18,748 nt of DNA, from assembly GCA_001803635.1 (NCBI GenBank), contig MHDU01000011.1, positions 1-18,748 on the forward strand, read 5' to 3'. The stretch is from Nitrospirae bacterium GWB2_47_37. Lineage in GTDB: Bacteria; Nitrospirota; Thermodesulfovibrionia; Thermodesulfovibrionales; Dissulfurispiraceae. A program made the translations under genes and the position numbers. This document shows positions 1,581 to 17,113 of this stretch, in pieces. Below the pieces are notes generated by a model that had not been told where the DNA came from, did not search any database, and saw only the letters and a list, made by a program, of their open reading frames with translations. Each line of letters starts with the position of its first letter. Position 1 is the first letter of the stretch.

Positions 1581-2933
1581 ATGATTAAACGAGTGAAGGA
1601 TTATTTTAAGGGCGACAATCTTGAATACGAGTTCCTGCCTCCGGCGCTCGAGATAGAGGAGACGCCGCCTTCTCCCGCTCGAAGGGTGTTGATATGGGCG
1701 ATATTTGCGATGGTCATTTTGACTTTTTTGTGGTCGTATTTCGGCAAGGTGGATGAGGTCGCCGTGGCGCGCGGAAAGGTCATTCCCGACGGAAGAGTAA
1801 AAGTAATTCAACCGATGGAAACGGGAGTCATAAGGGCTATTCATGTGGAAGAAGGGCAGAGGGTAAAAGAGGGGCAGATACTTATAGAACTCGACCCTAC
1901 CATAAAGCAGGCCGATGCGTTGAGCGCCGCAAAGGCGTTGTCCATTTATACGATGGACAGAGAGAGGCTTATTCAGGAACTTAACGGCAACACGACAGGC
2001 GATAGGCAAGAGGCTATAGGCAATGGGCGAAAGACAAAAGGCATCGGCGCATTGCAGGCAAAACTTAAAGAGGCGAGGGAATCCGAGTATAAGGCAAAAG
2101 AAGACGCCTTAAGGCTTGTAGCGGCGCAGAGAGAAAACGCCCTGCATGCGGCGGGGGCGATTTTAACGAAGCTCGAAAAGACATTCGCGATACTCAAAGA
2201 ACAGGAAACGGCATACAAAGATCTCTACAAGCATGAATACATCTCGAAGATGGATATGCTTAACAAGCAGATGGAATTTCATTCGGCGGAGCAGGAGCGT
2301 GAAGCGCAGAAGAAACTGGTAAGTCAGGCTAAAGACAGCCTCGAAGAAGCAAAGAAAAATTTAGACGCCCTTAAAAAGGAAAGGGAGAAGGGAATACTTA
2401 CGGACATAGTGGACAGGGAAAAGAGCATCAGCGCCATAGAAGGAGAGGCGATAAAGGCAAAGAAGAAATACGAACTCGAAAGGCTTTGCTCTCCTGTTGA
2501 CGGCACTGTTCACGGACTTGCCTCATACACTGTGGGAGGAGTGGTAACTCCTGCCCAACCCTTGGTCACGGTAGTGCCTGAAGGGACGCCTCTTATAATA
2601 GAAGCGACGGCATTAAATAAAGACATAGGATTTTTAAAAGTCGGGCAGGAGGCGGAGGTAAAGTTAGATACATTTCCGTTTCAGAAGTACGGCACCGTAA
2701 AAGGTAAGGTAACGGCCATAAGCCCGGATGCCTTCGAGGATGAAAAGTTAGGTCCCGTGTATAAGATAAAGGTAACTATCGAAAAATTGAAGATCTATGC
2801 GGACGACAGGTATATACCCGTAGCGCCCGGAATGAGCGTGTCGGTAGAAGTGAAGACAAATAAAAGGCGGATAATAGAGTTTTTCCTTTCGCCTATCGTC
2901 AAATACGCGAAGGAAAGCCTGACTTTGAGGTAA
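1581..2933 (+). CDS. HlyD-family type I secretion membrane fusion (periplasmic adaptor) protein
   Basis: 450 aa with a single N-terminal TM (VLIWAIFAMVILTFLWSYF), a long K/E/A-rich coiled-coil and a C-terminal beta domain ending RRIIEFFLSPI. This is the typical HlyD layout and position after the ABC gene. Confidence 0.8.
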   Translation: MIKRVKDYFKGDNLEYEFLPPALEIEETPPSPARRVLIWAIFAMVILTFLWSYFGKVDEVAVARGKVIPDGRVKVIQPMETGVIRAIHVEEGQRVKEGQILIELDPTIKQADALSAAKALSIYTMDRERLIQELNGNTTGDRQEAIGNGRKTKGIGALQAKLKEARESEYKAKEDALRLVAAQRENALHAAGAILTKLEKTFAILKEQETAYKDLYKHEYISKMDMLNKQMEFHSAEQEREAQKKLVSQAKDSLEEAKKNLDALKKEREKGILTDIVDREKSISAIEGEAIKAKKKYELERLCSPVDGTVHGLASYTVGGVVTPAQPLVTVVPEGTPLIIEATALNKDIGFLKVGQEAEVKLDTFPFQKYGTVKGKVTAISPDAFEDEKLGPVYKIKVTIEKLKIYADDRYIPVAPGMSVSVEVKTNKRRIIEFFLSPIVKYAKESLTLR

Positions 2934-3087
2934 AAACGGCAGGCTTAGGGCGAGAGCGATAGGTAATGACGGATTTAAATTGGCAGCTTAGGACTAATGT
3001 CTAAAAGTGAGTCTGACCTTAAGCGGATGATAACTAAGGAGTATAAAATCGAAGATATAATAAAACCGAAAGGGAGGCCGAAGAAAG

Positions 3088-3327
3088 ATGAAGACAAGAA
3101 TAAATAGAACCGTCCCGTTTTTTGTATCGAGGAGTATTCTCTCCCCCAGGGAGAAAGAGATTTTGGAGCGCATGAGAGACGGCAAAACCGACCTCGAAAT
3201 ATCCGCCATTTATACCATCAGCGAATACACTGTAAAGTTTCATATAAAGCATATCCTGCGTAAACTGCAAGCTTCAAATAGGACACACGCCGTAGGCATC
3301 GCCATGCAGAAACGCTTGCTCGATTAA
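3088..3327 (+). CDS. Solo LuxR/GerE-type helix-turn-helix transcriptional regulator (79 aa, HTH domain only)
   Basis: LSPREKEILERMRDGKTDLEISAIYTISEYTVKFHIKHILRKLQASNRTHAV matches the LuxR C-terminal HTH pattern. RBS GGGAGG lies at 3072-3077. No receiver or ligand domain is present. Confidence 0.7.
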   Translation: MKTRINRTVPFFVSRSILSPREKEILERMRDGKTDLEISAIYTISEYTVKFHIKHILRKLQASNRTHAVGIAMQKRLLD

Positions 3328-3362
3328 TTGACATCGAATCTACCCCCTACTCAAATGAGTAG
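3328..3362 (+). promoter_or_regulatory. Sigma70-like promoter candidate overlapped by a 16-bp inverted repeat
   Basis: Perfect -35 TTGACA at 3328-3333, a 17-nt spacer, then TCAAAT at 3351-3356. The palindrome CTACTCA-AA-TGAGTAG at 3347-3362 overlaps the -10. It could instead be the luxR terminator hairpin, but no T-run follows. Confidence 0.3.
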
Positions 3363-3709
3363 CTTACATTGGGGAAGGGGAATGTGGTATATAAAGGCCT
3401 GCATGTCTTGCAGCCGAACTTATAGGGAAGGTATGAACGAATTCAGTACGGCGTAAAAGAGTAAAAGATTGTGGAAATTACTGCTCAACAGAAATGCAAA
3501 AATTCCTGGAAGACTATTCCGACAGATTGCCTCGACTGTCAATGTCCGCTCCGAGCCGATTGCAGAGGAGGATGCACAGCTGCATCAGATGAGGTATATG
3601 GTTCACAATATCGGATTGATCCAATCTGTGAGTTATCTTGTTAAAAAAATTAGGTTGGTTTTTCAACGATAAGGAAAGAGCATGCCTTATTGAGATCGAA
3701 TAACGTGAG

Positions 3710-3726
3710 GCAAGATATAATCTTGC
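3710..3726 (+). promoter_or_regulatory. Perfect -10 box (TATAAT, 3716-3721) embedded in inverted repeat GCAAGAT-ATA-ATCTTGC, 30 nt upstream of the cassette start
   Basis: Read directly from the sequence. The nearest -35-like element, TTGAGA at 3690-3695, has a long 20-nt spacer, so promoter strength is uncertain. The inverted repeat could be an operator. Confidence 0.3.
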
Positions 3727-3751
3727 AGATTACTCTAAGTGGGAGGATTGT

Positions 3752-4303
3752 ATGCCTGACATGAAAGATTTTTTAAATCCGAAATCGATGTTAACGCCCG
3801 GCATTGCAGGCGGATTAACAGCCAGTGTTTCTTTAACATTGGCATCTGCATTTGCAATAAGCTTCAAATGGTCGGCACTTGGCATCAGTTTTTTGCTGGG
3901 GTTGCTTATAATGATTTCCATGCGGAACTCTATTCCCTTATTGCAGCGATTTATATATTGCATCCTAAATTCGCTGATTGTTTTTTCTATGGCGTTCGGC
4001 GCCGGTAAGGGCATTGATTCGCAGCCTCAGCTCGATCCTAAGATTATTGACAAAATTGTGAATACGCAATTATCAGTAGTTGAGCCTCAACCCCCTTCGG
4101 TTTTAGCGTTATCCAATGCATATGCGCAACAATATCCCATTAAATCAGATAAGCCTAAAAAAAGCACTGCTCCTTCCGGAACCGACAAAAAAGGGACAGG
4201 CAGCAATGAATCAAAGGAAAATAATCTGACCAAGAAAGAGATGGAACAGTTAAAAACGTATATTCAACAACAACAGAATTATGATAAGCGATGGTCGTGG
4301 TAA
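3752..4303 (+). CDS. Hypothetical small membrane protein (about 3 TM helices, with a hydrophilic P/K/Q-rich C-terminal tail)
   Basis: RBS GGGAGG at 3741-3746. Hydrophobic segments are GIAGGLTASVSLTLASAFAI, ALGISFLLGLLIMI and FIYCILNSLIVFSMAFGAG. I recognise no family. It is the first gene of the AT-rich cassette. Confidence 0.55.
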   Translation: MPDMKDFLNPKSMLTPGIAGGLTASVSLTLASAFAISFKWSALGISFLLGLLIMISMRNSIPLLQRFIYCILNSLIVFSMAFGAGKGIDSQPQLDPKIIDKIVNTQLSVVEPQPPSVLALSNAYAQQYPIKSDKPKKSTAPSGTDKKGTGSNESKENNLTKKEMEQLKTYIQQQQNYDKRWSW

Positions 4304-4345: not shown

Positions 4346-5152
4346 ATGTGTAAAGATAAGTCAGTGAGTCATTTAAACGAGTTAGGATGGAATGTGGTAA
4401 GATTACCTAAAGAAAATATTAATCCGCTTTTAACTCTTTCCAAATCCAATAGCTATCTTGAAACTTTAGGAGAAATCTCTGATTTCGTGATAGAAGATCA
4501 ACCCAAGCCCCCAGAAATTGTCCAAGACCAATCAGTAGCAGAAATTTCAGGTTTGGAGACTGACAAATTTGAATTGGGAATAGGACTAAAGTTTTTAGAA
4601 AAATTCCTATCTTTAGTGGGAGTAGCGGGATTAGGATTAGAAGCAAGCTTTAAGAATGCAGAATCCATTCAATTTGCCTATCAGAATGTACTGACAGATT
4701 TTGTCTATCCAGTGAAGATTGGAAAGTACTTATTGAGTGTCAGTCCTGATGTCAGTAGCCCCTTTATGGAGCATATTAATGAAGAGGGAGAGGCTTATAT
4801 TATTACAGACACGCTTAGATCTAACACATTCGGTATTGTTGCCTATGATGAAAAAGGTGTAAAAATTGATTTGGATATTTCTGCATTAAAGCAACTTCTT
4901 AGCGCTACTCCACATATTGAAGTATCTAAAGATGAGAAGAAAGTTGTTTCTTTTAAGGGGGATAAATTTCTGCGTTTTGCCTTTAAGGCAATCGGCGTAT
5001 GGGTGGAGATACGGGACGGCAAAGCGAGATTTAAACTGAATAAGCCGGAAGGACCCATTGCACCAATGAAGGCTTTACCGTCCACTTTAATTAGTCCCAA
5101 TGAACCAACACCTGTAATTTTCGGTATGAACACCCTAATCAGACTAAAATGA
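4346..5152 (+). CDS. Bacterial gasdermin-like pore-forming protein (bGSDM-like), 268 aa
   Basis: RBS GGGGAGG at 4334-4340. Cys is at residue 2. N-terminal LNELGWNVVRLPKENINPLLTL..LETLGEISDF, central AEISGLETDKFELGIGLKFLEKFLSLVGVAGLGLEASFKNAESIQFAYQNVLTDFV and later EAYIITDTLRSNTFGIVA follow the conserved pattern I recall for bacterial gasdermins. The length is typical (240-300 aa). The similarity is recalled, not computed. Confidence 0.7.
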   Translation: MCKDKSVSHLNELGWNVVRLPKENINPLLTLSKSNSYLETLGEISDFVIEDQPKPPEIVQDQSVAEISGLETDKFELGIGLKFLEKFLSLVGVAGLGLEASFKNAESIQFAYQNVLTDFVYPVKIGKYLLSVSPDVSSPFMEHINEEGEAYIITDTLRSNTFGIVAYDEKGVKIDLDISALKQLLSATPHIEVSKDEKKVVSFKGDKFLRFAFKAIGVWVEIRDGKARFKLNKPEGPIAPMKALPSTLISPNEPTPVIFGMNTLIRLK

Positions 5153-5180: not shown

Positions 5181-6248
5181 ATGTCGAATCAAGAATCGAT
5201 CAACAGAGGTCTTGACAGGGCATATAATGAGTTGAAACCTGAAGATACGATAAAATGCGATATAGAGTCTGTGCGTATCGTTATCTTTTCAGATCATCAC
5301 AGGGGAGTTCGCGATGGAGCTGACGACTTCCAGCGGTGTGAAGGGGCATATTGTGCCGCACTCGGATATTATTTAGAGAGAGGTTATAACCTCATAGTTC
5401 TCGGCGATGCAGAAGAATTGTGGGAGTGTAGGCCCGCCCCTGTAATTAGAGCTTATGAAAACACATTGAAGCTTGAGGCAGAATTTTATAAGAATAGGGA
5501 AGACCGCTACTGCCGTATTTATGGAAATCACGATGATTACTGGAGGGATACGGGTAGTATTAATATAGGTGGGGAACAAATAACGGCAAGGGATAAGCTG
5601 ATGATAAGCCTGCATGATAAAAACAATAAATCTATTGGGGACATTTTTTTTGTTCATGGTCATCAAGGGACTTTTGAAAGCGACCGCTTTGGGAAGATCA
5701 GCAGGTTTTTTGTAAGAAACCTCTGGAGACCCTTTCAGAGGATTACTCATATAAAGTTGACTACACCTGCCAAGGATGCAGAATTGCGCGGCGAACACGA
5801 TACGGCAATGTATAATTGGGCTTTAAATAAGAATAATGGGCAAAAAAAGCTTTTGCTGATTGCAGGCCATACGCATTTGCCGGTATTCGCATCAAAAGAT
5901 CATATAGGAAAGATTAGCGATGAGCTTAAATCTCTTCAGCAGCAGCTTGATAATGCGAGGACATCCGGCGATCCCCATGTTGACGGCATTGCAGAACAGA
6001 CAGCGGAAAAACGGGCTGAGCTTGAATATCGAAAGGCGCAAAAGAATATGAAAGAGGATCAGAAAGGCATTTTTATGGAGAAGCCATGCTATTTTAATTC
6101 CGGCTGTTGTTCATTCAGCGATGGAGATATAACAGGATTGGAGATTGCTGACGGAAAAATAAAGCTTGTTAAGTGGCCCAAAGATAATCCGAGAGTAGAA
6201 GTTCTTGAGGATGCCGACTTGAGAAGCGATATTTTTGGAAGCTTATAG
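5181..6248 (+). CDS. Calcineurin-like metallophosphoesterase (LpxH-like arrangement) with a C-terminal extension
   Basis: The ordered metallophosphoesterase motifs are FSDHHRG, LGDAEELWE, YGNHDDYW, VHGHQG and AGHTHLP. RBS AAGGAG precedes the ATG. Confidence 0.8.
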   Translation: MSNQESINRGLDRAYNELKPEDTIKCDIESVRIVIFSDHHRGVRDGADDFQRCEGAYCAALGYYLERGYNLIVLGDAEELWECRPAPVIRAYENTLKLEAEFYKNREDRYCRIYGNHDDYWRDTGSINIGGEQITARDKLMISLHDKNNKSIGDIFFVHGHQGTFESDRFGKISRFFVRNLWRPFQRITHIKLTTPAKDAELRGEHDTAMYNWALNKNNGQKKLLLIAGHTHLPVFASKDHIGKISDELKSLQQQLDNARTSGDPHVDGIAEQTAEKRAELEYRKAQKNMKEDQKGIFMEKPCYFNSGCCSFSDGDITGLEIADGKIKLVKWPKDNPRVEVLEDADLRSDIFGSL

Positions 6249-6299: not shown

Positions 6300-6875
6300 A
6301 TGATTTACGAATACGAGATAGACGGCTTGACGGTGCGGACAGGCGATATCATCTGCACTTCTGACGGCGCTGCGGATACCGATATCAAAGGCCAGTTCTG
6401 GCGGCTGCTGGGGAAAATAATACCCGGCGAGGTCGATCACATTATTATTTATGTAGGACCAAACGGTCGTTGCGTAGAAGCGGGAGCAAAAGGCAGGGTG
6501 ATAACCTTTGAGATTATGGATACTACATGGGATTTTCAGAAGATGATTGCAAAAAGGGGAATAATAGATACCCTGTATGGAGCAGCATATCCGCTTCAGG
6601 GGAAGAGTCTGAGCGAAACGGAGATAACAGGAATACGGGAAGCGGTTGCCGCGTATTGCCTGAGGCAGGCTGAATTGGAGAAGCCGTATAATATGAATTT
6701 CCTTGATTCAACCACCGAAGATGCATACTACTGCAGCCAGCTCGCTTACCTTGCATATTTCAAACACGGCATCGACCTGAATACCGGCAAGGGAATACCC
6801 GAAATACCAGGGACTGAGCGCATAATCTTCCCGCAGGAGATATGGAGCGGGTGCGGGCATAAAAAAGCGCGGTAA
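6300..6875 (+). CDS. Permuted papain-fold cysteine peptidase/amidase, YiiX / peptidase C92 (DUF830)-like
   Basis: GDIICTSDG near the N-terminus, HIIIYVG....VEAGAKG in the middle and a late YYCSQLAYLAYFKHGIDL (catalytic Cys motif). This order is typical of the circularly permuted NlpC/P60-like YiiX family. RBS AAGGAG. Confidence 0.6.
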   Translation: MIYEYEIDGLTVRTGDIICTSDGAADTDIKGQFWRLLGKIIPGEVDHIIIYVGPNGRCVEAGAKGRVITFEIMDTTWDFQKMIAKRGIIDTLYGAAYPLQGKSLSETEITGIREAVAAYCLRQAELEKPYNMNFLDSTTEDAYYCSQLAYLAYFKHGIDLNTGKGIPEIPGTERIIFPQEIWSGCGHKKAR

Positions 6876-10054: not shown

Positions 10055-11367
10055 TGGGCAAGATAGCGATACTTGTATTTTTGTTGTTCCTCGGAGTCCT
10101 CGGTTTTTTTGCGGTCGAGAACAAAGACGCCGTGATCATGAAAATTCCCTTCGGCGACGCTTATGAGATCCCGAAGATAGCGCTTGTTCTCCTTTCCTCC
10201 ACCATAGGCGCGCTTGCCGTCCTTATCGTGTTTTTTATAAGAGATACGAAACGCGTAATCGAAAATCTCCAGTATCAGAGGAGGCAGAAGAAAGAGGCCA
10301 GGATTCAGGAATTTTATTCCAAGGCGTTGAACGCCATAATGGGCGATAAGGAGGAGGAGGCGCGGGAAGCCCTCGGCGATATATTGAAGGAGGACCCGGA
10401 ATATATAGACGCCCTTTTACGGCTCGGCGACATCTCGCTCAATAACGGAAAATATGAAACCGCGTTCGATTATTACAAAAAGGTGAAGGACATAAACCCG
10501 AAGAATCTACAGGTGCTTTTTTCCATGGAAACAGTGATGGAAAAGCTGCAGAGATACAACGACGCGTTTAATTACCTCGAAGAGATACTCGATCTCGATC
10601 CCGAAAATCTTACCGGGCTCTACAAGAAGCGCTCTCTCCTCGAAAGGAAAGAGATGTGGGACGACCTCCTTTCCACGCAGAAGGCGATAATCAAGCTCGA
10701 ACATAACGAGCACGACAGGCAGCGGGAAGAGCGCAGGATGCTCGGTTATAAATATGAATACGCCCGCGCGAGCCTTGAAAACGGAGATGTTGAAAAGGCG
10801 GAAAAGGCGTTCAGGACAATGCTCAAGATGGACGGTAATTTTGTCCCGGCGCACCTCGGTCTTGCGGAAGTCATACTTATGAAAGGAGAGACCGAGGAGG
10901 CGATAAACTTTCTCGAAAAGGCGTACGAGCAGCTCAGGTCGATAATAATAATCGCTCGCCTTGAAGACCTTCTCATCAACGTAGGAGAACCGGGCAGGCT
11001 TATAAGATTCTATAAAAACGCCATAGCTAAAAATCCTCAGGACAACGGGCTGAGATTTCTCCTCGGCAAGCTCTACTACAGGCTTGAAATGGTCGATGAC
11101 GCCATGGAGATGCTGAATTCAATCGATACCACGGTCTTTTCGGTGCCCGAGCTGTATAGTTTGAAGGGAGAGTTATATATAAAGAGGAGCCAGATACAGA
11201 AGGCGCTGGACGAACTTAAAAAGGCATGCGGCATAAAAAGGCCGTTTAAGATCCAATACTGCTGCTCAAACTGCGGTTTAAAATCCGAAGACTGGTCGGG
11301 AAGGTGTCCCGGATGCACGGAGTGGAATACCTACAGGCTCGACGTTTATGGCTCCTGCAAAGCGTAA
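10054..11367 (+). CDS. lapB: LapB/YciM-like protein: N-terminal TM anchor, TPR repeats, C-terminal rubredoxin-like zinc site
   Basis: N-terminal TM helices, multiple TPR-like repeats (ALNAIMGDKEEEAREAL..., YETAFDYYKKV...), and a C-terminal CCSNCG...RCPGCTEWNTY (CxxC...CxxC) as in LapB. The ATG overlaps the rlmH stop (TGATG). Confidence 0.6.
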   Translation: MGKIAILVFLLFLGVLGFFAVENKDAVIMKIPFGDAYEIPKIALVLLSSTIGALAVLIVFFIRDTKRVIENLQYQRRQKKEARIQEFYSKALNAIMGDKEEEAREALGDILKEDPEYIDALLRLGDISLNNGKYETAFDYYKKVKDINPKNLQVLFSMETVMEKLQRYNDAFNYLEEILDLDPENLTGLYKKRSLLERKEMWDDLLSTQKAIIKLEHNEHDRQREERRMLGYKYEYARASLENGDVEKAEKAFRTMLKMDGNFVPAHLGLAEVILMKGETEEAINFLEKAYEQLRSIIIIARLEDLLINVGEPGRLIRFYKNAIAKNPQDNGLRFLLGKLYYRLEMVDDAMEMLNSIDTTVFSVPELYSLKGELYIKRSQIQKALDELKKACGIKRPFKIQYCCSNCGLKSEDWSGRCPGCTEWNTYRLDVYGSCKA

Positions 11368-12058
11368 AGACAGCGATGAGTTATCAGTGATGAGTGATGA
11401 GTTAAAAAACAAAAAAAAATCAAAGACGAAAAGTAAAAGCTCAAAAGCAAGCACATCACCGTCGTTAAAAGTCGTACTCGATACGAGCCTTTTCGTAAAT
11501 CCGGACGTCAGGACAAGCCTCGGAGCAACCCCCACAGAGGCTTTGGAAACATTCCTTTTTCTGGCGGCGCAGATACATATACTCGAATTCTACATGCCTC
11601 CGTCGATATTCGAAGAACTCCTGCATTTTGTGGAGAGGGACAAGATACCGGCCGATCTCCTTCTTATCTTGCATCAGAAACCGCCTAAAAAACATGAACT
11701 CACGACTCCCGCCTTTCTCTTATACGAATTGATTGAGGACATAAGGGAAAGGGTGAACAAGGGGCTGCGGATAGCAGAAAAGGCCGTAAGGAGTACAGAT
11801 CAAAAAAAGACGGATGAAATCGTTCAGGATATGAGAAGAAAGTACAGGGACGCGCTTAGAGAAGGGATCATCGACAGCAAGGAAGACGTCGATCTCCTGC
11901 TGCTCGCCATGGAACTTGACGCCCTGCTTATCACGGCCGATCAGGGGCTGATAAAGTGGGCCGAAAAATTAGGTGTAAGATGGCTGTTCCCGGAGAAATT
12001 CAAGGAATATTTAATGAGCGCGATAAAAAGAACCGAACTTCTTTCCGCAAAAGAATAA
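11348..12058 (+). CDS. PIN-like HARP family protein (homolog of Aquifex protein-only RNase P) with a Lys/Ser-rich N-terminal extension
   Basis: The core is VVLDTSLFVNPDVR...FYMPPSIFEEL...NKGLRIAEKAV...RRKYRDALREGIIDSKEDVDLLLLAMELDALLITADQGLIKWAEKLG. It closely follows the Aq_880/HARP pattern as I recall it. Residues 1-40 are K/S-rich. An alternative start is the ATG at 11390. Confidence 0.65.
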   Translation: MAPAKRKDSDELSVMSDELKNKKKSKTKSKSSKASTSPSLKVVLDTSLFVNPDVRTSLGATPTEALETFLFLAAQIHILEFYMPPSIFEELLHFVERDKIPADLLLILHQKPPKKHELTTPAFLLYELIEDIRERVNKGLRIAEKAVRSTDQKKTDEIVQDMRRKYRDALREGIIDSKEDVDLLLLAMELDALLITADQGLIKWAEKLGVRWLFPEKFKEYLMSAIKRTELLSAKE

Positions 12059-12076: not shown

Positions 12077-14302
<2,226 letters not shown>

Positions 14303-14304
14303 CT

Positions 14305-14449
14305 GAAAATTTTTTTAATGTCCTAACCCACAATGAAGGTGTCATTATCGACTGTAGTTTTAGTTTGGCTTAGGCTGGACAAACCCAAGCGTACATTCCT
14401 TCATCATATAGGCGTTTTACAATTAAGGCTCTTTTTGATTTTCGCAAAC
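14305..14449 (-). ncRNA. tracrRNA candidate (model 1): anti-repeat at 14449-14417 followed by about 110 nt of hairpin scaffold running toward the cas9 stop
   Basis: Plus strand 14417-14434 reads TTACAATTAAGGCTCTTT, the reverse complement of repeat segment AAAGAGCCTTAACTGTAA with 17/18 matches. Weaker inverted similarity continues to 14449. The one difference is a G-U wobble only for minus-strand RNAs. Hairpins at 14368-14390 and 14330-14348 also gain G-U pairs only on the minus strand. The ends and the strand are inferred, and no clear promoter or terminator was found. Confidence 0.5.
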
Positions 14450-14538
14450 CCCCTGGGGTTTATTTCAAAAGATGGCTTTTAGAAAATTATTGAAAATTTT
14501 CTCTGAAAACTTCTTGAAAATACTAAGCTATAAGGACG

Positions 14539-14645
14539 GTTTCAATCATCATTTTCAAAGAGCCTTAACTGTAATGTGCTGCCGTCCTGTGAGAGGGCTA
14601 TCTGCGGTAGTTTCAATCATCATTTTCAAAGAGCCTTAACTGTAA
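14539..14645. CRISPR. Minimal CRISPR array: two identical 36-nt repeats and one 35-nt spacer
   Basis: GTTTCAATCATCATTTTCAAAGAGCCTTAACTGTAA occurs at 14539-14574 and again at 14610-14645. The spacer is TGTGCTGCCGTCCTGTGAGAGGGCTATCTGCGGTA (14575-14609). The transcription direction is unresolved; the anti-repeat logic favours minus, while the AT-rich upstream region and the GTTT start favour plus. Confidence 0.85.
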
Positions 14646-14654
14646 CGCTCATAT

Positions 14655-14994
14655 AAGCAAGGTCTGTCCGCCGGAGAGGACGGTGTTTTCTCCATCGGTC
14701 GCGCTACTGAACCAACTGACTGTCAGTTAGACGAAACAATCAGAACAGAGTCCCTGCCGGAAACCGTTTCCGGTCGTCCAGCGAACATTGAGAAAGCTGC
14801 GACGCCAGATGCACCTTCCGGTGGGAAGTCCTCCGCTCAAACGCCTGAAGCGTCTCGCAGCCTTTCTGAAACAAATCAAAAAAGCTGAGACAAGATTCCT
14901 TTAAAATAGAGCATCTCAAAGAAAAGTCCCTGCGAGCAATGCGCTTCTTGAAGGAAGCCCCTCTCTAACGTCCGAAACGCTCAGGGACACTAAA
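14655..14994. ncRNA. GC-rich, densely self-complementary non-coding segment between repeat 2 and a degenerate repeat copy; candidate structured RNA of unknown class
   Basis: No ORF of 60 aa or more on either strand. Helices read by eye are 14664-14683 (6 bp), 14757-14773 (CCGGAAA/TTTCCGG, 7 bp), 14792-14866 (17 Watson-Crick bp in four blocks with an apical CTTCC/GGAAG hairpin) and 14926-14988 (GTCCCTG/CAGGGAC enclosing GCTTC/GAAGC). CTGAGA at 14885-14890 can pair with either TCTCA (14914-14918) or TCTCAG (15000-15005). Confidence 0.4.
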
Positions 14995-15030
14995 ATATAT
15001 CTCAGAATTGTAAAAGAGCCTAAACTATAA
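14995..15030. repeat. Degenerate third copy of the CRISPR repeat (direct orientation), 349 nt from repeat 2 and overlapping the cas1 promoter region; alternative anti-repeat if transcribed from the minus strand
   Basis: ATATATCTCAGAATTGTAAAAGAGCCTAAACTATAA matches the repeat at 25/36 positions by hand alignment. The half at 15013-15030 matches 16/18 and the other half 9/18. TATAAT boxes lie on both strands, at 15026-15031 (+) and 15045-15040 (-). Confidence 0.55.
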
Positions 15031-15081
15031 TATGATTACATTATATGCCTTTAAATTTCAAGAGCTTTAGCGGAGGTGGAT

Positions 15082-16275
15082 ATGCAAAGCAATACTTTTA
15101 AAATTTCACGCATCCATCCTGAATACGTGCCTAAAGAAAAATTGCCTCTTGCCCAATTCAATCTTTTTACAAACGAAGCGGAGAGCATTCCCTTATTGAT
15201 CGACAAAGATGTTGACGACGAGATATTTATCGATGAAGGGATTTCTCTGATAAAAAGCGGCGATTCATCGCAGATAGTGTTATCGGGGTTCGGCATTTTT
15301 TTAAGCAAAAAGAGCGAGCGTCTTATTGTAAAGAAAAACACTAAAGTTGTTTATGAGTTTCCCTTTTTCAGGCTGAACGAAGTCATCATGGCTTCCCGCG
15401 GCATATCGCTGTCGTCGGATCTTATAGAGGAATTGTGCGAGAGGGGTATAAGACTGAATTTTCTGAACAACAACGGCAAGCCGTACGCAATGCTTTCTTC
15501 TCCGATGCTCTCCGCAACCGTCATATCAAGAAGAGAGCAGATTATTGCCTTTACCGATACGCGCGGTCTTCAATTCTCAAAAGCTATTGTGGAGGGCAAA
15601 ATCAGAAATCAAGAAAGACTTTTGAGATATTTCGGCAAATATATTAAAACTGTTGACAGCGCCAGGTTTGACAGAATAGAGGAGATAACAGATGTCATTA
15701 GGAAGATGAGCAGGCAGGTGGAAGGTATTCACGGGCAGAGCATTGAAGATGCAAGAGGCAGACTGATGGCAATTGAAGGCGCTTCAGGTAGGCTATACTG
15801 GGACGGCGTTAAGGAGATAATCGGAAATAGAATAGAGTTTTTCGGGCGGGAAACGCGGGGAGCCATTGATGCCGTAAACTCCCTGCTGAATTACGGCTAT
15901 GGGATTTTATATTCCCACGTCTGGGGCGCCGTTATAAACGCCGGGCTTGAGCCGTTTGCGGGGTTTCTTCATGTGGACAGGCCCGGAAAGCCGTCTCTTG
16001 TTTTGGATTTGGTCGAAGAGTTTCGTCAACCTATTATCGATAGGATTGTAATCGCCCATATTAATCTTGGAGAATCAATCGAAATTAGAAATGGCCTGCT
16101 TGAAGCTGAGACCAGAAAGCTGATAGGGAACAAAATTATTGAAAGGCTGGAGAGTCAGGAAACACTTGACGGCAAAAAATATAAAATTAGGTCGATAATC
16201 CAGATGCAGGCCAGAAATTTAGCGGCCTTTCTGAACGGCAAAAGAGAATACAAAACGTTCAGATTTAAGTGGTAA
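15082..16275 (+). CDS. cas1: CRISPR-associated endonuclease Cas1
   Basis: Canonical C-terminal Cas1 motifs EGASGRLYW, AIDAVNSLLNYGYGILY, GFLHVDRPGKPSLVLDLVEEFR. RBS GGAGG at 15072-15076 favours ATG 15082, although the track starts at GTG 15076. Confidence 0.9.
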   Translation: MQSNTFKISRIHPEYVPKEKLPLAQFNLFTNEAESIPLLIDKDVDDEIFIDEGISLIKSGDSSQIVLSGFGIFLSKKSERLIVKKNTKVVYEFPFFRLNEVIMASRGISLSSDLIEELCERGIRLNFLNNNGKPYAMLSSPMLSATVISRREQIIAFTDTRGLQFSKAIVEGKIRNQERLLRYFGKYIKTVDSARFDRIEEITDVIRKMSRQVEGIHGQSIEDARGRLMAIEGASGRLYWDGVKEIIGNRIEFFGRETRGAIDAVNSLLNYGYGILYSHVWGAVINAGLEPFAGFLHVDRPGKPSLVLDLVEEFRQPIIDRIVIAHINLGESIEIRNGLLEAETRKLIGNKIIERLESQETLDGKKYKIRSIIQMQARNLAAFLNGKREYKTFRFKW

Positions 16276-16278
16276 TTG

Positions 16279-16560
16279 ATGGAAGAACATACAGTCTATA
16301 TTTTTTACGATATAGAAGATGACGGCATACGCAATAAGATTGCGGAGAAGTGTAAAGACTATGGGCTCGAAAGAATACAGTTCAGCGGCTTTTCCGGCAT
16401 TTTAAATAGAAACAAGCGGGAAGAACTATTTCTAAGGCTCATTTCTTTAATTGGCGGCAAATCAGGCAAAATTCTTATGCTTCCCTTATGTGAAAGGGAT
16501 ACGAAGGTAAGAAGGGAGTTTATACAGGAAGGACAAGATGATTCAACTGAGGGTCGGTGA
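16279..16560 (+). CDS. cas2: CRISPR-associated endoribonuclease Cas2
   Basis: About 93 aa. The N-terminal beta strand VYIFYDIEDD carries the conserved Asp, and the ferredoxin-like length is right. It starts 4 nt after the cas1 stop (TTG 16276 or ATG 16279). Confidence 0.8.
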   Translation: MEEHTVYIFYDIEDDGIRNKIAEKCKDYGLERIQFSGFSGILNRNKREELFLRLISLIGGKSGKILMLPLCERDTKVRREFIQEGQDDSTEGR

Positions 16561-17113
16561 TCTCAAGCAGTTCGTATATTGTCCAAGAGTCGTGTTCTAC
16601 AATTATGTGATGCCTGTCGAGAAAGTTCCAACCTTCAAGATGGAGCATGGGAAGATAGCAGAGGATAAAATAGACAGGCTTGAGCACAGAAGAAAACTTA
16701 AAAAGTACGGCTTGTCCGGCGGGGAAAGGGAATTCCACTTGAATTTATATTCTCCGAAATATGAGTTATCAGGCAAGATTGATCTGCTTATCAATACTGT
16801 CGGTTCTTATTATCCGGTTGACTTTAAATATACCACCTCGCAGCCGCATAAAAATCATATCTATCAACTTTTGGGGTATGCCCTAATACTTGAAGACATA
16901 TATAAATGCAAAGTCAATAGGGGATTTGTATATATAATTCCCAAAGAGGATGCAATTTCTTTTGACTTAACGGATGATTTGAAGGGCAAAGCAGAAATTT
17001 TGCTTGATGAGATCAGAGATATGATAGCATTGCAGCAAATGCCTGCCCCTGCAAACTCCAGAAATAAATGTGACGACTGCGAATATAGGAATTTCTGCGG
17101 AGATATTTTTTGA
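16538..17113 (+). CDS. cas4: CRISPR-associated exonuclease Cas4 (RecB-like nuclease with a 4-Cys cluster)
   Basis: N-terminal Cys (FVYCPRVVFY), the nuclease motifs GKIDLL and YPVDFKYT, the QxxxY-like IYQLLGYALIL, and a C-terminal CDDCEYRNFC. It overlaps cas2 by 23 nt. Confidence 0.85.
   Translation: MIQLRVGDLKQFVYCPRVVFYNYVMPVEKVPTFKMEHGKIAEDKIDRLEHRRKLKKYGLSGGEREFHLNLYSPKYELSGKIDLLINTVGSYYPVDFKYTTSQPHKNHIYQLLGYALILEDIYKCKVNRGFVYIIPKEDAISFDLTDDLKGKAEILLDEIRDMIALQQMPAPANSRNKCDDCEYRNFCGDIF

Follow-up and report, generated by a model that had tools for sequence, protein, structure and literature searches.

A decayed CRISPR repeat upstream of cas1 in a type II-D CRISPR-Cas locus and its probable place in a conserved promoter block

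Introduction

What does a degenerate copy of a CRISPR repeat do immediately upstream of cas1, outside the array to which such repeats belong? The question is raised by an 18,748-nt stretch of DNA (referred to below as the window) that carries a CRISPR locus. The original prediction, made from the letters of this stretch, held that the copy heads a minus-strand RNA of ~155 nt (15033-14878) acting as a second tracrRNA for a plus-strand crRNA. It offered three alternatives: that the copy is a decayed terminal repeat, that it is a repeat-derived promoter for cas1, or that it yields a guide-less repeat RNA competing for the tracrRNA. Comparison with related loci favors the first two. With a probability of roughly 0.7, we consider 14995-15031 to be a decayed terminal repeat from the array's old end, the one nearest cas1, which today lies inside a conserved bidirectional promoter block.

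Results

Locus content and the strand of the guide RNAs

Open reading frame and family scans identified a chromosomal stretch (encoding PrfA, RlmH, a LapB-like TPR protein, and a PIN_5 protein) and, after it, a CRISPR locus with the order cas9d, tracrRNA, two-repeat array, cas1-cas2-cas4. The main features are as follows.

12104-14302, plus strand: cas9d (732 aa), the type II-D effector (NCBIfam CRISPR_Cas9d, 514 bits against a cutoff of 375)
14313-14437, minus strand: tracrRNA, from a 13-locus alignment and covariance model
14434-14417, minus strand: tracrRNA anti-repeat (the inverted repeat copy at 14417-14434), with the scaffold after it
14446-14461: hairpin AAACCCCCTGGGGTTT between the tracrRNA start and the leader, kept in 15 loci
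14539-14575 and 14610-14646, crRNA sense on the minus strand: array of two perfect repeats and one spacer, the strand being given by published sgRNAs
14647-14994: GC-rich non-coding insert of 348 nt, in this strain only
14995-15031, plus strand: decayed direct copy of the CRISPR repeat, matching it at 25/37 positions in all and at 16/18 in one half
15008-15030, plus strand: recognizable core of the decayed repeat, by repeat match
15082-16275, 16276-16560, and 16538-17113, plus strand: cas1, cas2, and cas4 (Pfam and NCBIfam matches)

Cas9d shares 66-67% identity with the published NsCas9d and with a relative of 747 aa, possibly MG34-1. Alignment with 397-aa orthologs sets the cas1 start codon at 15082, preceded by a Shine-Dalgarno sequence, GGAGG, at 15072-15076. 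The Cas9d effector, an array, and a homologous tracrRNA are all present, and the locus is a type II-D CRISPR-Cas system. Its repeat is 37 nt long, not 36, because nearly every spacer starts with C. In L039, which derives from the same strain in another sample, the spacer differs from that of the window. The hairpin at 14446-14461, whose loop and stem vary together across the 15 loci, is likely the terminator of the plus-strand cas9d mRNA, and it sits within the promoter region of the minus-strand tracrRNA.

The strand of the guide RNAs determines how the repeat-like copy is to be read. The NsCas9d structure paper names individual nucleotides of the sgRNA: a repeat of G21-U39 with A30, a G27-U56 wobble, an anti-repeat of A44-A62, U53, a pseudoknot via 146-149, and a total length of 156 nt. 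The sgRNA was rebuilt nucleotide by nucleotide from the NsCas9d locus (L021) and then checked against these names. Every named nucleotide, including GGAC 146-149 and A156, was reproduced only by the strand opposite cas9d. MG34-1 numbering is compatible with the minus-strand assignment but fits the plus strand as well; NsCas9d numbering, which fits the minus strand only, decides between them. Because the published Cas9d guide RNAs fit that strand only, we assign both the crRNA and the tracrRNA of type II-D to the minus strand relative to cas9d.

On the minus strand the crRNA reads 5'-spacer-GUUACAGUUAAGGCUCUUU... One half of the repeat, AAAGAGCCTTAACTGTAA(C), hardly changes across ~20 loci, and the other half is free to vary. 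The constant half is spacer-proximal and pairs with the tracrRNA; its constancy is expected if it forms the 17-19-bp duplex that Cas9d holds. The original prediction had noticed that the same half is preserved in the array, the inverted copy, and the direct copy, and had proposed selection on it. The tracrRNA-pairing role explains this preservation for the array and the inverted copy. Selection on this nearly invariant half stands for the true repeats and the anti-repeat; no such selection is evident for the remnant upstream of cas1, which has decayed to 9-14/23 in other lineages.

A complete tracrRNA between cas9d and the array

The minus-strand region running from the anti-repeat toward cas9d was aligned across 13 loci and used to build a covariance model. 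Of the 29 pairs in the consensus fold, 5 show compensatory double changes in the 13 loci, and the fold agrees with the published architecture; in the window, GGAC at 14323-14320 pairs with a loop GUCC to form the tracrRNA pseudoknot. The region is orthologous to the NsCas9d tracrRNA. When the window was searched with this model with filters off, a single strong match was obtained at 14300-14437 on the minus strand (128.6 bits, E = 1e-30), the remaining matches being plus-strand repeat echoes of 10-16 bits. The same 13-locus model, again with filters off, had no match on the minus strand of 14872-15045, and an Rfam search of 14000-15400 on both strands, with E up to 10, returned sub-threshold noise only. 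Hence, a complete, conserved tracrRNA already exists in the locus, ~600 bases from the decayed copy, and there is no second scaffold.

The old end of the array

Several observations bear on the polarity of type II-D arrays. Variant, degenerate, or truncated repeats occur at the cas1 side in L021, L023, L030, L041, and L043. Spacer 5 of L005 is identical to spacer 4 of L004, toward the cas1 side, and the tracrRNA-side spacers of these two arrays differ. Additionally, a 104-nt flank on the tracrRNA side is conserved up to the first repeat in the loci compared. From these few cases, new spacers seem to enter at the tracrRNA side, so that the cas1 side would be the old (trailer) end, which fits the presence of a decayed repeat there. 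With crRNAs read from the minus strand, transcription nevertheless has to reach the array from the cas1 side.

The repeat-like copy and its relatives

A direct copy of the repeat is present at 14995-15030 as originally described, matching at 25/36 positions, 16 of the 18 in one half among them; taken at the true repeat length of 37 nt (14995-15031), the match is 25/37. The better half is 15013-15030 (AAAGAGCCTAAACTATAA against AAAGAGCCTTAACTGTAA). A search for this 18-mer with up to three mismatches found four matches in the window, namely the anti-repeat at 14417-14434, the two repeats, and the decayed copy, against 0.02 in shuffled sequence.

Read on the minus strand, the decayed copy is AUUAUAGUUUAGGCUCUUU, the same sense as the crRNA repeat, which means that it cannot serve real crRNAs as their anti-repeat. 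Its only complement is the plus-strand repeat, and the published sgRNAs are not built from that strand. Its minus-strand reading is predicted to form a duplex with the tracrRNA of -19.0 kcal/mol, against -24.8 kcal/mol for the true repeat and -5.0 +/- 2.1 kcal/mol for shuffles. The copy is separated from the last good repeat by 348 nt, not by one spacer length. Further decayed repeats were sought within the insert, and the best candidate reached 14/24 (P = 0.17). A possible second decayed repeat at 14978-15001, not significant alone, aligns with the second one of L022 and L023.

Orthologous remnants lie at the matching position in L041, L043, L022, and L023. The window and L041 have derived bases in common (...TAAACTATAA for TTAACTGTAA), and the remnants are therefore orthologous old copies, not fresh duplications. 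When the 23-mer comprising the -35 hexamer and promoter spacer (see below) was compared with the repeat core TTTTCAAAGAGCCTTAACTGTAA, the window scored 19/23, followed by L023 (18), L022 (17), L041 (16), and L043 (15); at the lower end were L029 (14), L024 and L021 (12 each), L026 (11), and L001 (9). In five loci with a DUF5618 gene the remnant has been overwritten (4-8/23). L022, L023, and L029 carry a second decayed repeat alongside the first. The gap between remnant and repeat varies, with variable cargo inside: 348 nt in the window, 58-67 nt in L022 and L023, and 0-24 nt in L021, L041, L024, and L043. These comparisons show the repeat ancestry of 14995-15031 and its conserved position, just as those above show which RNA is the tracrRNA and from which strand the crRNA is read.

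In the closest loci, L031-L033 (88% Cas9d identity), homology with the window ends at the last repeat and resumes at 15026, a minus-strand DUF5618 gene standing in place of window positions 14647-15025. These loci have no remnant because the DUF5618 gene occupies the spot. Among 13 loci, the block upstream of cas1 (described next) is most conserved in a palindrome and in the remnant's last 5-6 nt (CTGTAA/CTATAA); the inner part of the remnant is not kept across lineages.

A conserved block upstream of cas1

The remnant overlaps a block with promoter-like elements on both strands.

15008-15036, plus strand: predicted cas1 promoter from a promoter scan, with -35 TTGTAA (15008-15013), 17-bp spacer (15014-15030), and -10 TATGAT (15031-15036)
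15026-15040: palindrome TATAAT-ATG-ATTACA, overlapped by minus-strand promoter candidates
15026-15061, minus strand: promoter candidates, one being TTGAAA (15061-15056), 18 bp, AATCAT (15037-15032)
Within the same interval, minus strand: a second candidate, TTTAAA (15055-15050), 17 bp, TATTAT (15032-15027)
15045-15040, minus strand, and 15026-15031, plus strand: TATAAT hexamers, both in the sequence

The two TATAAT hexamers had been pointed out in the original prediction, and the minus-strand one counts as a third promoter candidate on that strand. The 17-bp spacer of the plus-strand promoter consists of decayed repeat sequence, and the -10 lies just past the old repeat end. The same plus-strand site was called independently in the window, L023, L026, and L029; these calls are consensus matches, each by itself close to what chance would give, with 5 found in the window scan against 1.6 expected and 1 in each of the L023, L026, and L029 scans against 0.5-0.8. 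The plus-strand hexamers and their spacing are kept in 10 loci, 49-57 nt before the cas1 ATG. The block common to 13 loci comprises TTG[TC]AA (TTGYAA), exactly 17 bp, TAT[GA][ATG]T, and then TACAC/T. It contains the palindrome TGTAAT-ATG-ATTACA and is followed by a AAATCAAG motif, the Shine-Dalgarno sequence, and the cas1 ATG. This 13-locus comparison supports two of the alternatives, namely decay of a terminal repeat and derivation of the cas1 promoter from a repeat.

On the opposite strand, a pattern TTGAwT-17/18-(TGT)AAyhAT, with AATCAT, AAACAT, or AACTAT as the downstream element, was present by eye in the loci inspected. Four unrelated minus-strand cargo genes (DUF5618, DUF2283, DUF4160/DUF2442) begin just downstream of the block in relatives, and in L033 the arrangement TATAAT-N6-ATG suggests a leaderless DUF5618 mRNA. 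Moreover, the NsCas9d locus L021, which is without cas1, still has the block next to its array. We infer that the block is a bidirectional promoter. The minus-strand promoter of the original prediction is probably real in some form, its likely product being a cargo or pre-crRNA transcript, not a tracrRNA.

The strain-specific insert

The hairpins and U-tract once proposed as a tracrRNA scaffold all lie inside the 348-nt insert, which has a GC content of 0.50-0.60 against 0.31-0.40 around it.

14926-14988, minus strand: 63-nt stem-loop
14885-14890 and 14914-14919, minus strand: small hairpin CTGAGA/TCTCAA, 6 bp with one G-U and a 23-nt loop
14878-14883, minus strand: U6 tract as the complement of these positions, from the sequence

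The 63-nt stem-loop is present as described, with a fold of -24.7 kcal/mol (z = -2.1; 6/200 shuffles as good). The UUGAGA/UCUCAG hairpin also forms the stated 6 bp with a G-U on the minus strand; the C-U6 tract placed after it lies at 14878-14883, 2 nt off the predicted 14876-14881. The small hairpin (14885-14919) is not the minimum-free-energy fold of its own segment (z = -0.6), and a terminator scan called no minus-strand terminator in the 14872-15045 unit. The proposed minus-strand RNA, taken as 162 nt, folds like shuffled sequence (z = -1.3; 18/200). The whole 388-nt minus-strand stretch folds unusually well, at z = -4.0 vs. -2.0 for the plus strand.

Searches for the origin of the insert gave the following results. 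Positions 14647-14994 had no match in 40 related loci, nor elsewhere in the window. Against plasmids the sole match was 60 bases (17% of the query, E = 2e-3) of a Skermanella plasmid, which is not convincing; no match was found among phages, nor in viral contigs for the one 20-mer tested. The insert ORFs (59, 50, and 38 aa) had no Pfam family and no convincing relative. The 59-aa ORF was rejected as coding, its one marginal match among 1.84 billion proteins (E = 2e-4) being repetitive. The possibility that the insert is a decayed DUF5618 gene was also rejected, tblastn and blastn both being negative, and no convincing MITE-like terminal inverted repeats of the insert were found. In relatives the corresponding site holds DUF5618, DUF2283, or DUF4160 plus DUF2442 genes, or almost nothing.

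Discussion

Origin and role of the remnant

Under the reading that we prefer, an ancestral terminal repeat would have abutted the upstream region of cas1 and would since have been decaying, with the positions of the promoter hexamers and the palindrome kept. On the plus strand, the remnant would provide the -35 (TTGTAA) and the 17-bp spacer of the cas1-cas2-cas4 promoter, with a predicted start at ~15043. The overlapping elements at 15027-15061 would start a minus-strand transcript at ~15020-15033, and this transcript would cross the 348-nt insert into the two-repeat array and serve as pre-crRNA. The small cargo genes of relatives may be driven by the same minus-strand promoter. Promoter activity, start sites, and the identity of the minus-strand transcript as pre-crRNA are deductions from sequence.

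Alternative explanations

That the resemblance to the repeat arose by chance in AT-rich promoter sequence is extremely improbable: the region is indeed AT-rich and dense in promoter-like hexamers, but a 16/18 match is expected 0.02 times per window, and independent lineages reach 15-18/23 at the same anchored position. Equally little credence can be given to the second tracrRNA of the original prediction. Its sequence features exist, and a duplex between the plus-strand repeat and the minus-strand remnant is predicted at -22.2 kcal/mol. However, functional Cas9d crRNAs are minus-strand, the remnant itself is in crRNA sense, and pairing would use the spacer-distal half of the plus-strand repeat. 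Furthermore, the covariance model finds no Cas9d scaffold at 14872-15045, the 162-nt RNA folds no better than shuffles and has no called terminator, the hairpin-bearing part (14872-14994) is unique to this strain and missing from every related locus, and a complete tracrRNA exists elsewhere in the locus. The claim of a second tracrRNA pairing with a plus-strand crRNA is rejected.

A different role at the RNA level deserves more weight, though it too is unlikely. Here the minus-strand transcript, if it starts at ~15033, would open with AUUAUAGUUUAGGCUCUUU and mimic a crRNA by pairing with the tracrRNA anti-repeat. It could then be a guide-less decoy that titrates tracrRNA or Cas9d, an entry site at which RNase III shortens the pre-crRNA or cargo transcript from its 5' end, or a scaRNA-like regulator. 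The remnant is predicted to pair well with the tracrRNA (-19.0 kcal/mol against -24.8 kcal/mol for the true repeat), minus-strand promoter candidates lie immediately upstream of the remnant, and the tracrRNA-pairing half is the better preserved one in the window, L022, L023, L041, and L043. Additionally, precedents exist in types II-A, II-B, and II-C in the form of scaRNAs and of a long tracrRNA that acts in self-regulation (PMC13431127; bioRxiv 10.1101/2020.05.21.102756). Against this, the predicted starts at 15020-15033 leave a guide of 0-2 nt or shorten the repeat by 6-11 nt at its 5' end, a search of the rest of the 18.7-kb window for seeds of 8-15 nt with NGG gave no match, and the protospacer in the own locus is followed by ATT, not by an NGG/NRG PAM. 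A search for natural guides found that words of at least 9 nt common to the tracrRNA/leader/array region and the promoter block are repeat-derived only. The remnant has also decayed to 9-14/23 in L029, L024, L026, L001, and L021 and been replaced in the five DUF5618 loci; decayed or replaced in many lineages, it is therefore dispensable. A narrower proposal, that some type II-D lineages have kept the remnant because the transcript's 5' end pairs with tracrRNA and recruits Cas9d and RNase III, is a distinctly long shot. If true, tracrRNA-Cas9d levels would help to set how much the array and the adaptation genes are expressed, much as in autoregulation by scaRNA or long tracrRNA but without a guide. 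The remnant and palindrome (TGTAAT-ATG-ATTACA) could also act as DNA, bound by Cas1-Cas2 or a transcription factor that regulates the divergent promoters. Integrases (Cas1-Cas2) recognize repeat ends, which counts for such an operator, as does the fact that conservation of the block in 13 loci is highest in the palindrome and the remnant's last 5-6 nt. We nevertheless regard it as very unlikely, in that no regulator gene is conserved beside the block, the palindrome is equally explained by two overlapping face-to-face -10 elements, and the inner remnant is not kept across lineages.

Relation to known systems

Read as a decayed terminal repeat within a promoter block, the element is of a known kind in a known CRISPR subtype, with a modest twist: a dead repeat fixed in a conserved bidirectional promoter. 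It resembles degenerate terminal repeats in orientation, in lying at the end opposite spacer addition, in its partial decay, and in having no guide role. It differs from them in being separated from the array by a 348-nt insert, not by one spacer, and in being fixed relative to cas1 in many loci, where it serves as -35 and promoter spacer. Promoters inside the repeats of type II-C systems were reportedly described for Neisseria and Campylobacter by Zhang et al. and Dugar et al. in 2013, each live repeat reportedly having its own -10 for transcription of a crRNA. There, as apparently here, the repeat of a type II locus is also promoter sequence; here, in contrast, a single dead repeat would supply a -35 and spacer for adaptation genes, on the strand opposite the crRNA.

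The window element has the same 18-nt repeat/anti-repeat sequence as the Cas9d tracrRNAs of NsCas9d and MG34-1 (PMC12339737, PMC11903963, PMC9755519). Unlike these, it is crRNA-sense and without a nexus stem, a central stem, or the GUCC:GGAC pseudoknot, and its downstream part is not conserved. ScaRNAs have been reported in types II-B and II-C (PMC13431127), and the S. pyogenes long tracrRNA acts as a "natural single guide" (bioRxiv 10.1101/2020.05.21.102756). Like them, the window element is an orphan repeat-like sequence by a cas promoter whose RNA could, judging from duplex predictions, pair with tracrRNA; unlike them, it is without a predicted upstream guide or PAM-flanked target in the window and is lost or decayed in many loci.

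These findings fix the annotation of the locus, with crRNA and tracrRNA on the strand opposite cas9d, and guides designed on the second-tracrRNA model would fail. They also locate the likely promoter of the type II-D adaptation genes, which seems to have arisen from a dead CRISPR repeat, a small case of sequence recycling. On its other strand, the block seems to be the source of transcription both for a variable set of small genes and for the array, which would be entered at its old end. The copy in the window is the best preserved of all (19/23), which may reflect extra constraint or a more recent origin.

Array Polarity and Spacer Content

Because the crRNAs lie on the minus strand, transcription must reach the array (14539-14646 in the window) from the direction of cas1. 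Yet this is apparently also the old end of the array, as marked by degenerate repeats and shared spacers in a sequence comparison with the related loci L004/L005, L021 (the NsCas9d locus), L023, L041 and L043. The newest spacers would then lie on the tracrRNA side and occupy the 3′ end of the pre-crRNA, approximately 104 nt upstream of the tracrRNA, with both on one strand.

The window's strain has also been assembled from another groundwater sample (L039), and the two assemblies share 99.7% identity across 14.8 kb. The single spacer between the two shared repeats is wholly different in each (14575-14609 in the window vs. 12473-12508 in L039), which suggests either spacer turnover or a population-variable array that was collapsed by assembly. 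The left repeat of the window ends in T rather than the usual C. Several type II-D loci have single-repeat arrays together with intact cas1-cas2-cas4, the adaptation module being kept next to near-empty arrays such as these:

L041, 3776-3834, near-empty array, its single repeat fused directly to the fossil/promoter element
L043, 5555-5637, near-empty array
L032, 3363-3398, near-empty array

A Possible Origin of the Anti-Repeat

The segment immediately 3′ of the tracrRNA anti-repeat, AACGCCTATATGAT (14403-14416), bears a weak likeness to two repeat flanks:

14646-14655, flank of the last repeat, CGCTCATATA
15031-15044, flank of the fossil repeat (the decayed repeat in the cas1 promoter block), TATGATTACA

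This resemblance hints that a terminal repeat and its flank were duplicated in inverted orientation to give the anti-repeat.

The Interval Between the Array and the cas1 Promoter

The strain-specific insert and fossil repeat together (14647-15033) fold much more stably on the minus strand, at -138.7 kcal/mol (z = -4.0), than on the plus strand, at -106.1 kcal/mol (z = -2.0), and contain the perfect palindromes CCGGAAACCGTTTCCGG and AACTGACTGTCAGTT; this stretch had no Rfam match and no convincing homolog. Within the insert, 14830-14849 forms a 20-nt inverted match with the cas1 5′ UTR and Shine-Dalgarno region (TTCAAGAGCTTTAGCGGAGG) at 15057-15076, and its 16/20 identity is of borderline significance by a rough count. 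The match could act as an anti-SD, provided that a plus-strand transcript reads through. Terminator-like hairpins directly follow the last repeat in two loci:

14664-14685 in the window, plus strand, terminator-like hairpin
10608-10626 in L023, plus strand, terminator-like hairpin

Such hairpins may insulate the cas1 promoter against plus-strand read-through.

In five type II-D loci (L019, L030, L031, L032, and L033) the interval from the array to the cas1 promoter block holds a DUF5618 gene (Pfam E = 1e-39) on the crRNA strand, for example:

3140-3526 in L033, minus strand, DUF5618 gene

The DUF5618 C-terminus adjoins the terminal repeat, and in L031-L033 the stop codon falls within that repeat. 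Elsewhere the same slot holds DUF2283, or DUF4160 plus DUF2442; possibly it recurs as a site for accessory or cargo genes co-transcribed with the array.

Neighboring Genes

Approximately 7 kb before the CRISPR system, on its upstream side, lies a second defense locus with a bacterial gasdermin gene:

4346-5152, plus strand, bacterial gasdermin gene (PADLOC bGSDM, E = 8e-79)
3752-4303, 5181-6248, and 6300-6875, gasdermin neighbors

The gasdermin gene is followed by genes for a metallophosphatase-like protein and a C92 papain-like peptidase, which could be the activating protease of the gasdermin.

RNA repair or ligation genes are recurrent neighbors of type II-D effectors, as seen in the window, L034, and L035. 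Immediately upstream of cas9d in the window is:

11348-12058, plus strand, PIN_5 "RNA ligase partner" protein

The corresponding place directly upstream of cas9d is taken by an archease gene in L034 (region 2326-4217) and L035, and fragments of the RNA ligase RtcB lie beside it in L034.
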